Below are positions 3,837-38,226 of a stretch of DNA of 64,000 nucleotides, piece after piece. Within the stretch, counting starts at the first letter, position 1. Every line of letters starts with the position of its first letter. The stretch comes from Escherichia coli (GTDB lineage: Bacteria; Pseudomonadota; Gammaproteobacteria; Enterobacterales; Enterobacteriaceae). A program made the translations under genes and the position numbers. The stretch lies in the NCBI RefSeq assembly GCF_003334305.1, contig NZ_QOWS01000025.1. One strand, written 5' to 3'. The notes below the pieces were generated by a model that was not told the origin of the DNA, ran no database searches, and worked only from the letters and a program-made list of their open reading frames with translations.

Positions 3837-6479
3837 TTACTGGTTTACTGAAATTGAAGTCGGAGGTTCCGTTGGCGTCACCCGCTGTGTCTGTTCCTGA
3901 ATCGCCGGTTTGACCGCCGGCGAAGTGATAGGTGCTACATTGCCTTTATGCTGGCATGGCAGTAACAAGCCGTTAAACAGATCGGCAGGCAGCGGGTCCG
4001 GCAGGTTGATATCGCAATGCGCAACACCACTCCAGAACACACTCATGTGTTCGCCAGGTTTCACCCCAGCCAGATAAACATTGCCGTCATCATCGACAAG
4101 GCCCACTGTCTGCTCGTTATCATTTTTTACTTCTGCGCCAAACGGAGGATGGCTGCCGTCTTGTAAACGCAGCACCGCCATCGCTTTTTGACCACTGATG
4201 ACGGCAAATTTGCGGTAGCCAATCGCCCCTTCAGTTAGCGTGGCTTGTACCACCGACTGGGTTGCTTCGGCGTTTTCCGGCAGTTTGTTGAGGTCGATAT
4301 ACGCCTGATTGCGGTAATAGTTATTGACGTCAGAAACGACGGCTTTACCAAACATATTGGTATAAACAGCAGCACCGTTACCTTCTACCGGAACATCGGC
4401 AACGCCATCGGCATCAATCAACAAGCGTGTCCCGCCCATATTCTGGGTACGGTGAAGTGCGCCACCGTGGGCAGTAAGCGTTGCGCCGCCCTGTAACGAC
4501 AAGCCCGCAGAGGTGTATTGCCCTTCATGGTAGTTCGCACTGAGGTCAACCTGCGCCAGCGAACCATCATGGCTGTAATAGCCGTCAACGCTGGTGTGTT
4601 TGTCACTGGTGCCGACGTTCAACTGATAGTGAGTCGCGTCATCGACACGGCTGAAATAACCGACCTGACTGCTGTCCGTCCCACTGCCATAGTTACCGTT
4701 ATAGCTAACGGTACTGTTGTCGCCCCACGGCATACTGAGCGAAATGTACATGCCTTTGTCGGCCTGGTTGTCATACTCGTAACGGTAGCCAGTCATCGAG
4801 ATGCTGACATTACGAATACTGCCCATATTGAAATAGTGCGAGAGCATGATGTTGTAGTTTGTCTGCTCCTCGCGATCCCAGTAGGTATGGCGGGTATAGT
4901 TGAGATAAACCGAAACACCCGCATCGCGGAAGTTCTGGTTATAAGTGGCGGTGTACATCTCTTTGTCGTTGCCCGTGCGTACCATTCCGCTGTCACTGGC
5001 ATCCAGATACTCGCTCATGGTCATAAAGTTCTCTTCCGAGAAGCGATATCCAGCAAAAGTAACGCGGCTGTTGAGCTGGTCAAAGTCTTTGGAATAACTC
5101 ACACGGAAGGAGTTACCGTCCAGCGAACCTTTGCCATAAGCGGTGTCTTTATCCAGTTTGGTGTGCGAGTGAGTAACATCAAACGCGACCGCGCCGAATG
5201 TAGACAAATCGCGACCGACGCCAAGCGCCGCAGACTGATAGTTTTCATCTCCCAGTGCGCCGCCATATAACGACCAGCCGTTAGCGATCCCCCAGGAAGC
5301 TTCAGCACCAGAAAAAAATTCACCCTCGACATGGTGTCCCCACTCTTGCGGACGGCCCATCATGATCTTATAGCGAACCTGACCTGGGCGAGTGAGGTAT
5401 GGCATCGAGGCGGTGCTGATGTCATATTCCTGCACCTGGCCGTTCTGTTCTTCAATGCGAATATGCAACGTACCGGAGACAGAATCACCAAGATCCTGAA
5501 TACGAAACGGTCCAGCCGGAACCTGCGTTTCGTAAATCACACGCCCCATCTGGCTGACGGTCACTTTTGCTGTGGTGTGTGCCACGCCGGAAATGTCTGG
5601 CGCGTAGCCGCGCAGATTGGGAGGCAACATTTGATCGTCAGTACTGACACTGCCACCAACATAGTTAAAACCATCAAAAATATCGGATCTGAGGTAATCC
5701 TCGCCCAGCGCCAGTTTGGCTTTTAATGATGGTAACGCCCGCCAGGCATAGTAGCGACTCCACTCCCATTTTTTTTGAGTTTCATCGCCGCTGAATTCAT
5801 CGTCATCATTACTGCGAGTATGTTGATAGTTAGTCTGCCAGTCAGCACGCATACGCCACGGCCCCAGGTTAACCCCGACCGTCCCGTTGCCGCTGATCTC
5901 GTTACTATCATCACCGCCATTTTCTTCGTGCCGGGTTTGTGCGTTGATGCTGTAGTCCGCGACGATCCCGGAGATGCCGTCATCCCAACGTGAAGGCGGA
6001 TCCCAGTCGGGATAAGTATATTCGAGGTAAGCCTGTGGCAGTGAAATGACTAATGCGGACTGGCTTAAATCAGCCTTAATTTCCATGCCTTCCAGTTGAC
6101 CGGATTTCAGGCATTTAGCATCGTGGCTCCATTGCAGATTTTTCGCCACGTCTTCTTTTAAACCAAACTGCGCTACCAGTTCCGGTGTCAGACAAGCATA
6201 GCTTTTGCTCGCGTCATCTTCACCAGCATACCAGTAAATATCGTACTCTTCCGCCAATGGCTGTTTATTTAGTTGAACCTGTAAATTGTATTTTCCGGGC
6301 TCAACATATCCCTGGCTGGAAAAACGCTTCAGATCAATTTTTGTGTCGCCTTTTAATTCCAGAAAACGGGAATCAAACTGAATGTCGTCTTCAGCCCAGA
6401 CACTGCTATAACTCCCTGACATTGCCAGCGCAATGCACCACGGAAGAATCCGTAATCGAAAAAGAGAATGGTCAGGCAT
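3837..6479 (-). CDS. yfcU: outer-membrane fimbrial usher YfcU, full length
   Basis: Uninterrupted 880-aa ORF with signal peptide, typical usher size; in K-12 this gene is a disrupted pseudogene. Confidence 0.9.
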   Translation of the reverse strand: MPDHSLFRLRILPWCIALAMSGSYSSVWAEDDIQFDSRFLELKGDTKIDLKRFSSQGYVEPGKYNLQVQLNKQPLAEEYDIYWYAGEDDASKSYACLTPELVAQFGLKEDVAKNLQWSHDAKCLKSGQLEGMEIKADLSQSALVISLPQAYLEYTYPDWDPPSRWDDGISGIVADYSINAQTRHEENGGDDSNEISGNGTVGVNLGPWRMRADWQTNYQHTRSNDDDEFSGDETQKKWEWSRYYAWRALPSLKAKLALGEDYLRSDIFDGFNYVGGSVSTDDQMLPPNLRGYAPDISGVAHTTAKVTVSQMGRVIYETQVPAGPFRIQDLGDSVSGTLHIRIEEQNGQVQEYDISTASMPYLTRPGQVRYKIMMGRPQEWGHHVEGEFFSGAEASWGIANGWSLYGGALGDENYQSAALGVGRDLSTFGAVAFDVTHSHTKLDKDTAYGKGSLDGNSFRVSYSKDFDQLNSRVTFAGYRFSEENFMTMSEYLDASDSGMVRTGNDKEMYTATYNQNFRDAGVSVYLNYTRHTYWDREEQTNYNIMLSHYFNMGSIRNVSISMTGYRYEYDNQADKGMYISLSMPWGDNSTVSYNGNYGSGTDSSQVGYFSRVDDATHYQLNVGTSDKHTSVDGYYSHDGSLAQVDLSANYHEGQYTSAGLSLQGGATLTAHGGALHRTQNMGGTRLLIDADGVADVPVEGNGAAVYTNMFGKAVVSDVNNYYRNQAYIDLNKLPENAEATQSVVQATLTEGAIGYRKFAVISGQKAMAVLRLQDGSHPPFGAEVKNDNEQTVGLVDDDGNVYLAGVKPGEHMSVFWSGVAHCDINLPDPLPADLFNGLLLPCQHKGNVAPITSPAVKPAIQEQTQRVTPTEPPTSISVNQ

Positions 6480-6560: not shown

Positions 6561-7124
6561 TTACAGGTAAGTAATCTGGAAGGTGGTATTTGCTTCGAAA
6601 TTACCCAGATCTGGCGCATCAGCTGCGCCGACCAGCCAGGCTTTAAAGTTCAGTGTCTGCTTCGCTTTGCCTTTATTGGTAGAAGTGTCTTTCACTATTT
6701 TCTGGTCAATACCCATGCCGCTTTTGTAAGAGGTACCCAGAGAGTCACCGATCGCTAGGCTAACATTGTTAAATGCCGCACCGGTATCGGTATTGAAAAT
6801 GGTGTAATAATTGCCGCTATTTGCAGAAGAAACGGTACCAGTAAAGGTAGTGGTCATTGTTTCCTGAGTATCAAATACGCAATCTTGCAGACGAATCTGG
6901 AAACTTTTCGGCGTGGTGGTGCCGTTATTTTTCAGTTTTTCGGCACCGATATCACCCATATCAACTTCCAGTTTGTGATCGTCCGGAACGATAGAACACA
7001 CTGAGTCTTCAATGGTGCCGTAAAAACGTGCAGTACCGTTGTTACCCGCAGCGATTGTTGCCGTAGAGGTGAAAACGCCCATCACCATTGCCGCAGCAAT
7101 AGCTGTTTTAACAAACTTACTCAT
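6561..7124 (-). CDS. yfcV: major fimbrial subunit YfcV
   Basis: 187-aa ORF with signal peptide and pilin-like C-terminus (TTFQITYL); first gene of operon, preceded by a long AT-rich control region. Confidence 0.85.
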   Translation of the reverse strand: MSKFVKTAIAAAMVMGVFTSTATIAAGNNGTARFYGTIEDSVCSIVPDDHKLEVDMGDIGAEKLKNNGTTTPKSFQIRLQDCVFDTQETMTTTFTGTVSSANSGNYYTIFNTDTGAAFNNVSLAIGDSLGTSYKSGMGIDQKIVKDTSTNKGKAKQTLNFKAWLVGAADAPDLGNFEANTTFQITYL

Positions 7125-7752
7125 TATTTGTCCTTAAACTATAAATAATTAAAAATATAAACATTACAATACATTGATTCAGTCAATACCCAATGTTTAT
7201 ACCCAGCCATTGAATACGGCATGCGATCCAAAAAGAACAGGTCGTAGAAAATTGTATTCTTTGGTGTGGGGCCGCATAGTGATGTTTTCACCCCCCTGAT
7301 GCAATTTAATTTTACTAAAGAGTAAATGTAGATTTAATTAATATATTGACAGAAGAAAGGTTATCTTAAGGACATCCTTAAAAAATACGGAATAAGTATT
7401 TAGAAAAAATAGAAAGTATATCAATAATGAATATCAACAGCTTAAAAAACAAACAATGAACATATAATGCGATTGGCATTTATCCACTTTTGACAATATA
7501 ATATATAAACACTATAGCCAGAATTTAATCAAGTTTCAATTACATCCTGCCTGATTATTCAACTCTATTATCTGTATTAATAAATGACAATGAGTGTCAA
7601 ACAGACATTATTCATTTCAACATGTAACTTTGGGCAAAATCAAGATACGCGCAGAAGAATAATTTCCGAATGAATGTAGAAAGTGTTTTATTTATAGATA
7701 AGGAGAGTCTTCGATAGTAGTGAGGTTGACAGATATCCGCTGCCTGATGAGC

Positions 7753-7789
7753 AATTATGCCCAATGAATCTACCTCATTGGGCATAATT
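7753..7789 (-). terminator. stem-loop downstream of sixA (15-bp perfect stem, weak U-tract)
   Basis: AATTATGCCCAATGA-atctacc-TCATTGGGCATAATT begins about 9 nt after the sixA stop codon. Confidence 0.45.
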
Positions 7790-7798
7790 TGGAACACA

Positions 7799-8284
7799 TC
7801 AGATAGCTTTTGCCATCTTCAGATTACACGGGCTCATCTGCCAGTTGAATGTACCGTTTCCGCTTTCATCAAGCGTTACGCTGGCAATGGCCGAGGTGGT
7901 AAACATAGGCGGCGTTTCGCCCGGACATAACTCGGCAACCAGATACCCGACTAACGGTAAGTGAGAGATCACCAGTACCGAAGCAACACCTTCATTGGTC
8001 AACGCCTGCAAATAGGCACTGACCAGACCAACATCGCCGCAGGGCGTTAACTCCGGCAGAACTTCTGCACTGGAAGGCAGGTTCAGACAATCCCCCACTT
8101 CTTCCAGTGTTTGCTCGGCTCGCAGGAACGGGCTCACCAGAACGCGTTCGATTTCCACTTTTTGACCTTTCAGCCAGTTCGCCATCAGGCGAGATTCGTC
8201 ACAACCATTAGTGGTCAGAGGACGAACGGAATCACTGGCGGCATCGAGGGCTGCGTCGCCGTGACGCATGATAAAAACTTGCAT
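7799..8284 (-). CDS. sixA: phosphohistidine phosphatase SixA
   Basis: 161-aa ORF beginning MQVFIMRHGDA (histidine phosphatase RHG motif); conserved position downstream of fadJ. Confidence 0.95.
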   Translation of the reverse strand: MQVFIMRHGDAALDAASDSVRPLTTNGCDESRLMANWLKGQKVEIERVLVSPFLRAEQTLEEVGDCLNLPSSAEVLPELTPCGDVGLVSAYLQALTNEGVASVLVISHLPLVGYLVAELCPGETPPMFTTSAIASVTLDESGNGTFNWQMSPCNLKMAKAI

Positions 8285-8486
8285 ATTGCACCGCTTTTGT
8301 TAACCAGATTCGCCCGTTTTCTTTCATCTGAAACCAGAGAAAGAAAACGGTGGCCGGCATTGTGCCTTATCCATTCACCGAATGAAACGCTGTTTTTTAC
8401 CTCAATGGCGTAAGTATAGTCAATATGCGTTTACATTTTGACCAACACTCCGCCATTCAGCGCGGATTCATATAGCTTTGACCTTC

Positions 8487-37983: not shown

Positions 37984-38226
37984 GCGCCGGTGATTTACAA
38001 GTAAGGGTATGATTACGCTTTTTAAAGCGTACCATAAAACATAACATAATAAATGATTTGTGATGACACGGGATTATTGGGATTTACTTTGAGGAAGATA
38101 AAATGCGTGTTTATAGAACCGCGAGCGCCAAATAATTTTATGACCACAACCTGTCGTATTGTGGTCATAAAAAATTGTCGGCTGGAGGGAGTTAAATCCT
38201 TTACCTCAATATACTGCCTGTCAGCA

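Follow-up and report, generated by a model that had tools for sequence, protein, structure and literature searches.

The closest described relatives of the hairpin discussed here come from the work of Dar and Sorek, who reported that Rho-dependent transcripts end at steady state in stable stem-loops without a U-tract or an A-tract, that C is enriched over G just downstream, and that these stem-loops protect the RNA against PNPase and RNase II (Dar and Sorek, 2018; PMC6061677). Two further kinds of element place a palindrome at the end of a gene, namely the canonical intrinsic terminator, a stable G+C-containing stem-loop with a U-rich tract of about 7-9 nt directly 3' of the stem, and the REP/BIME repeat, an intergenic palindrome able to stabilise the upstream mRNA. 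In this article, I compare all three with the gene end of sixA in a stretch of 64,000 nucleotides of Escherichia coli DNA (the window) and argue, at a probability of roughly 55%, that the long hairpin found there protects the 3' end of a sixA mRNA terminated by Rho and so belongs to the class of Dar and Sorek.

The hairpin 3' of sixA

A first-pass annotation of the window had pointed to an unusually long, perfect hairpin with a 15-bp stem about 9 nt after sixA, and an inverted-repeat search returned precisely this sequence and position, AATTATGCCCAATGA-atctacc-TCATTGGGCATAATT, a 37-nt element at 7753-7789 with 15-nt arms that are 100% complementary and a 7-nt loop. The stop codon of sixA, TGA, occupies 7801-7799 (tca at 7799-7801 on the plus strand), which leaves a gap of exactly 9 nt (7790-7798) before the stem. 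The features of the locus are the following:

7799-8284, minus strand: sixA coding sequence (phosphohistidine phosphatase SixA, 161 aa), taken from the open reading frame list and from RefSeq-annotated E. coli records that match the locus exactly or almost exactly
7753-7789, minus strand: the hairpin as sixA-sense RNA, with 5' arm 7789-7775, loop 7774-7768 (GGUAGAU) and 3' arm 7767-7753
7745-7802, minus strand: extended imperfect helix, in which an outer CUGAUG (7802-7797, including the UGA stop) faces CAUCAG (7750-7745)
7649-7752, minus strand: C-rich, G-poor tract, a candidate rut region, directly 3' of the hairpin on the sixA-sense strand
7511-7539, minus strand: yfcV promoter TTGAAA-17-TATAGT from a consensus scan, about 215 nt downstream of the hairpin
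7289-7775, no strand assigned: hypervariable yfcV-sixA spacer cassette, delimited by blastn (word size 7) and coverage breaks

Both neighbours of sixA are also encoded on the minus strand, yfcV (6561-7124) downstream and fadJ (8487-10631) upstream, and positions 7100-8300 are 100% identical to E. coli strain H15. The hairpin itself is identical in K-12 MG1655 (NC_000913.3, 2456282-2456318), with only three substitutions separating K-12 from the window over the 141 nt around it. RefSeq carries no annotation on the site, and an Rfam scan of 7000-8500 at E <= 10 gave chance-level matches only (E > 1). Two open reading frames that overlap the hairpin were treated as spurious: a 61-aa frame on the minus strand (7612-7797), whose GTG start is GAG in K-12 (A at window 7796, T in K-12), and a 57-aa frame on the plus strand (7757-7930), antisense to sixA.

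The description of the hairpin as unusually long is borne out, as it is the longest perfect hairpin of the window, and no second perfect inverted repeat turns up in the 64 kb when arms of 15 nt or longer and loops of 3-20 nt are required; among 40 dinucleotide-preserving shuffles of the window none equals it, with a mean count of 0 at arms of at least 15 nt and of 0.025 at arms of at least 13 nt. The arms are AT-rich, as had been noted, with 5 G/C in 15 positions (33% GC) and a GCCC/GGGC core. Folding of the RNA, which had been proposed as a check, extends the 15 perfect pairs to 16 with a closing G-U pair and gives -21.4 kcal/mol (z = -6.4) for the 37-nt sixA-sense RNA and -20.0 kcal/mol (z = -7.8) for the plus strand, while the extended structure, which spans the stop codon, reaches -36.2 kcal/mol (z = -6.2) over 81 nt.

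The hairpin thus has the stable stem-loop of an intrinsic terminator (15-16 bp, -21.4 kcal/mol, GCCC/GGGC core) and lacks the U-rich tract. The 8 nt past the full stem, GCUCAUCA, contain 2 U, and the 8 nt past the core stem, AAUUGCUC, contain 3 U; the T-tract score in the window and K-12 is 0.43-0.74 compared with 3.0-4.6 in those sister alleles that bear a U-tract, and on neither strand is a U-tract present (T-score 0.4-0.9). There is no A-tract either, the flanks outside the AAUU pairs reading CCA and GCU, and a consensus terminator scan of 7100-8500 found no terminator. Because the U-tract is absent, the hairpin is not a textbook intrinsic terminator, and the earlier statements that its U-tract is weak and that it may be no simple terminator stand in that sense.

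Alleles of one gene end in Escherichia and other genera

A 45-nt query matches this hairpin in 3,100 of the 5,426 complete E. coli genomes, always at a single locus, and in 3,090 of them with 100% identity; the second "place" reported in each genome is only the palindrome matching its own opposite strand. A repeat family (REP/BIME or MITE) is thereby ruled out, since the element is single-copy; nor does it resemble the REP-like sequences that follow sixA in other genera. Across the same 5,426 genomes four main allele forms were counted directly after sixA, given here on the plus strand of the locus unless stated otherwise:

Allele A (this window, K-12): 3,100 genomes or about 57% of the total, 3,090 of them identical across the 45 nt; AATTATGCCCAATGAatctaccTCATTGGGCATAATT
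Allele B (O157:H7, O145): 429 genomes; ATGCCCGATGTAcagcTTACATCGGGCAT between A- and T-runs
Allele C (B2 strains such as UM146 and S88): 1,227 genomes; GCCCGGT...ACCGGGC
Allele D (strain 675SK2): 634 genomes; GGCCCG...CGGGCC, then TTTATTTTTTT on the sixA-sense strand

B-like hairpins also follow sixA in E. albertii, E. whittamii and one further Escherichia species. T-scores are 3.0-4.6 for alleles B and D and for E. albertii, intermediate for allele C (1.8) and 0.4-0.7 for allele A, and because several of the sister versions keep a normal U-tract, alleles B and D and the E. albertii version look like ordinary intrinsic terminators, as judged from sequence. The hairpin of the window shares with these (O157:H7/O145, D-type and E. 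albertii sixA) a homologous core, an equal distance from the stop codon and the same presumed role, and differs from them in having no U-tract and four extra A-U pairs. This homology to U-tract terminators of other phylogroups and species is not visible from the sequence of the window alone.

To follow the stem itself, 12 Escherichia sequences were aligned, anchored at the sixA stop codon, with counts made on the 15 pairs of the window's stem. The GCCC...GGGC core is invariant across the 12 sequences; stem cells are paired in 83% of cases, as against 27-40% when the 3' partner is slid by 1-3 columns; in 9 of the 15 pairs both partners have changed (columns 23/41, for instance, go from G-C to A-U, and columns 18/46 from U-A to G-C); and the observed covariation score was attained by none of 500 shuffles. 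Since the core is invariant and pairing is kept through double changes, these hairpins are one homologous element whose structure has been kept across Escherichia. Such covariation is not proof of selection at the RNA level, because intrastrand template switching in a palindrome also yields double changes. Two allele-B strains (L006 and L007, both at 880-908) carry the whole hairpin as reverse complements of each other plus one mismatch, with loops cagc/ttac and aagct/gtac, the signature of a template-switch inversion in a palindrome.

Alleles A and B show no blastn similarity (word size 7) from 7289 to 7775, and similarity resumes at 7776, within the sixA-proximal arm of the hairpin; likewise, in the 12-sequence alignment the similarity on the sixA-sense strand stops directly after GGGCAU. 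In allele A the stem has been lengthened, AAUU flanks on both sides adding four pairs. The simplest reading would be an exchange of the variable yfcV regulatory cassette whose breakpoint lay at the hairpin and which carried the U-tract away. The hairpin descends from a sixA terminator hairpin common to the genus Escherichia (core AUGCCCRAU...AUYGGGCAU), and in allele A the DNA beyond it is wholly unlike the O157 type; it is a degenerate form of that plain terminator and not a different kind of element. Across E. coli phylogroups the spacer of about 490 bp upstream of the yfc fimbrial operon (7289-7775) comes in four or more alleles that cannot be aligned with one another, while the flanking yfcV and sixA remain similar; in strain 14EC033 an IS1 stands in place of the yfcV side of the spacer.

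Beyond the genus, 80 loci encoding SixA relatives were collected from other genera and the hairpins judged by direct reading, as an automated best-hairpin and T count (77 other-genus loci) is unsuited to U-tracts, the most stable fold taking A- and U-tracts into the stem. In most loci a hairpin lies no more than a few tens of nucleotides past the stop codon, with a genus-specific sequence: Enterobacter, Lelliottia and Leclercia have GGCGGG...CCCGCC, without a U-tract and tight against a convergent gene, and in Citrobacter and Kosakonia the hairpin is AAAGAGCCGC...GCGGCUCUUU, has a U-tract and in many cases comes after REP-like elements, which also follow sixA in Salmonella. Each genus has its own hairpin and the palindrome sequence is therefore confined to part of E. 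coli. Conservation across Enterobacteriaceae, the other check that had been proposed, accordingly gave a divided answer, positive for position and structure and negative for sequence; a hairpin that ends sixA appears to be a general feature of the family, with conservation that is positional and structural only.

A probable role of Rho downstream of sixA and the competing readings

The DNA that a polymerase would meet on leaving sixA is a 675-bp, AT-rich spacer that has been catalogued as a "promoter island" (PMC3661553) and is bound by H-NS and RNA polymerase in vitro (PMC3661553, PMC3946193). Directly at the base of the hairpin the composition of the sense strand takes on the C-rich, G-poor, rut-like character of RNA downstream of Dar and Sorek stem-loops, with a C/G ratio of 2.4-3.5 at 7752-7649 (C 20-22 and G 6-9 per 78-nt window), the maximum of the spacer. 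The yfcV promoter found by the consensus scan consists of the same hexamers that Shimada et al. described as a constitutive yfcV promoter, H-NS-associated (Shimada et al., 2014; PMC3946193), and its site leaves about 215 nt past the hairpin for sixA transcription to stop. SMRT-Cappable-seq places sixA (b2340) in a single-gene transcription unit that starts at 2456915/6 (PMC6131387).

For K-12, Adams et al. reported a region of termination by Rho at 2456198(-), which corresponds to about window 7669 and lies 84 nt beyond the hairpin, with upstream/downstream reads of 136/73 without bicyclomycin and 148/738 with it, a Rho score of 9.3 and p = 1.1e-41 (Adams et al., 2021; PMC7815308). Read-through thus rises upon inhibition of Rho in these published data, in 800-nt windows whose downstream DNA is an H-NS-silenced promoter island, and the downstream increase could partly stem from promoters of the yfcV promoter island, because the windows are that wide and bicyclomycin de-represses H-NS-silenced AT-rich DNA. 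On the plus strand, a near-consensus, promoter-like TTGGCA-18-TATAAT (11/12 positions) at 7473-7502 is oriented toward the hairpin and reads antisense into sixA; a plus-strand Rho region is also listed by Adams et al. at 2455977, about window 7458 (PMC7815308), and Rho appears to suppress antisense transcription from the 7473-7502 region. For three growth conditions, the curated Term-seq lists of the same study contain no 3' end at K-12 24562xx-24563xx (PMC7815308); this is weak evidence, because the lists comprise only dominant ends (about 882-1,175 per condition) and expression of sixA is weak. There is no entry for sixA in the TERMITe supplements, a literature search returned no paper that pairs sixA with Term-seq or with bicyclomycin, and sixA is named in none of the papers listed by a search for a link to ProQ or Hfq.

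The mechanism favoured here, that of the protective stem-loop, would run as follows. RNA polymerase would pass through the hairpin, Rho would load on the C-rich, G-poor RNA directly past it and terminate transcription within about 100 nt, ahead of the H-NS-silenced yfcV promoter, and PNPase and RNase II would then trim the transcript 3'-to-5' back to the base of the hairpin, which would set and shield a mature 3' end about 45 nt past the sixA stop codon. As far as DNA letters can tell, the hairpin matches the class of Dar and Sorek in every sequence-level feature, a stable stem-loop right past the gene at the presumed transcript end, without U-tract or A-tract and with C exceeding G downstream, and the published K-12 data supply the bicyclomycin-sensitive read-through. 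Within the class its stem (15-16 bp, arms of 33% GC) lies at the long, AT-rich extreme. A precedent for the design lies in the same window, the hairpin of fadL at 14135-14163 on the plus strand, which has a perfect 13-bp stem, -19.1 kcal/mol, no U-tract (T-score 0.35) and an adjoining Rho region. In K-12, Term-seq puts the primary 3' end of fadL at 2462694, and the Rho region is listed at 2462709 (PMC7815308); for sixA, unlike fadL, no Term-seq end is listed.

Other readings have to be weighed against the same observations. It is rather unlikely, in my view, that the hairpin still works as a weak intrinsic terminator (perhaps assisted by NusA/NusG) or as a strong pause site, with Rho mopping up the read-through. 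Such a role would suit the great stability of the hairpin, its homology to the canonical terminators, complete with U-tract, that alleles B and D and E. albertii carry in this place, and the monocistronic nature of sixA, and the last four pairs (AAUU/AAUU) could open to leave AAUUGCUC as a residual tail; the T-score of 0.4-0.7, from a tail in which 2-3 of 8 nt are U, speaks against it, however, as do the negative terminator scan, the lack of a Term-seq 3' end at the hairpin in the lists of Adams et al. and the strong bicyclomycin effect just downstream. Less likely again is a functionless relic, an ancestral terminator stem that survived the cassette swap through chance or palindrome self-correction, while sixA transcripts are ended by Rho alone and decay normally. 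That the similarity of alleles A and B stops at the hairpin, and that the inversion of the allele-B hairpin reflects template-switch dynamics, speaks for a relic, and identity in 3,090 genomes is weak evidence for constraint because allele A genomes are closely related; however, most loci of other genera in Enterobacteriaceae keep a hairpin directly after sixA despite wholly different sequences, and the stem of allele A has not decayed but grown longer, its AAUU/AAUU flanks adding four pairs.

That the palindrome acts as DNA, be it by binding a dimeric regulator of yfcV or sixA as its operator, by forming a cruciform or by serving as a recombination site edging the variable yfc promoter cassette, I consider very improbable. 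A perfect 37-bp palindrome exactly at the edge of the hypervariable segment, in a spacer that binds H-NS and RNA polymerase in vitro, invites such an idea. Usual operator half-sites, however, are much shorter than 15-bp arms. Here the arms measure 15 bp with centres 22 bp apart, the site lies 3' of sixA and about 215 nt upstream of the yfcV promoter, the arm sequence varies by lineage with pairing retained, and the half-site occurs at no other locus in E. coli genomes, so that the conservation of half-sites in relatives or at other loci that marks a transcription-factor operator is not seen. The first-pass annotation had offered an RNA-stability element or a protein-binding palindrome: the former comes close to the protective stem-loop preferred here, and the latter loses its footing with a sequence that varies between Escherichia lineages while pairing is kept, at a single locus per genome.

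More speculatively, and with the balance still against it, the E. coli population may hold natural alleles of one gene end with distinct termination modes. Replacement of the cassette, with its breakpoint at the hairpin, would have taken away the U-tract, and what is an intrinsic terminator in alleles B and D would have become a Rho-dependent end with a longer protective stem in allele A (the form of K-12 and this window) and perhaps in allele C; the palindrome may also have been the breakpoint for recombination or template switching. The practical value of the result is small; it would account for an unannotated palindrome, present in K-12 and in the majority of E. coli genomes, as the end of the sixA transcript, which can be flagged as probably Rho-dependent. 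The four allelic hairpins, of which two bear a U-tract and two lack a strong one, provide a natural comparison set for a shift from intrinsic to Rho-dependent termination, and the same set could also be used to probe the insulation of the adjacent H-NS-silenced yfc fimbrial operon.

Other hairpins and genes in the window

The 5' untranslated region of sixA contains a hairpin of its own, CCGUUUUCUUUC...GAAAGAAAACGG at about 8315-8352 on the minus strand, between the transcription start (K-12 2456915/6) and the start codon, and in the data of Adams et al. strong Term-seq 3' ends fall at 2456833/2456835, 21-23 nt ahead of the sixA reading frame (PMC7815308), which suggests premature termination or processing in the sixA leader. 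Further away, a long near-perfect hairpin at 38136-38172 (TTTTATGACCACAA/TTGTGGTCATAAAA) has 14 bp and a 9-nt loop, and another at 15679-15716 (AAAAAAGGTGAGT/ACTCACCTTTTTT) looks like a bidirectional intrinsic terminator. The fimbrial usher gene yfcU (3837-6479, minus strand), annotated as a pseudogene in K-12 MG1655, is an intact reading frame of 880 aa in the window.
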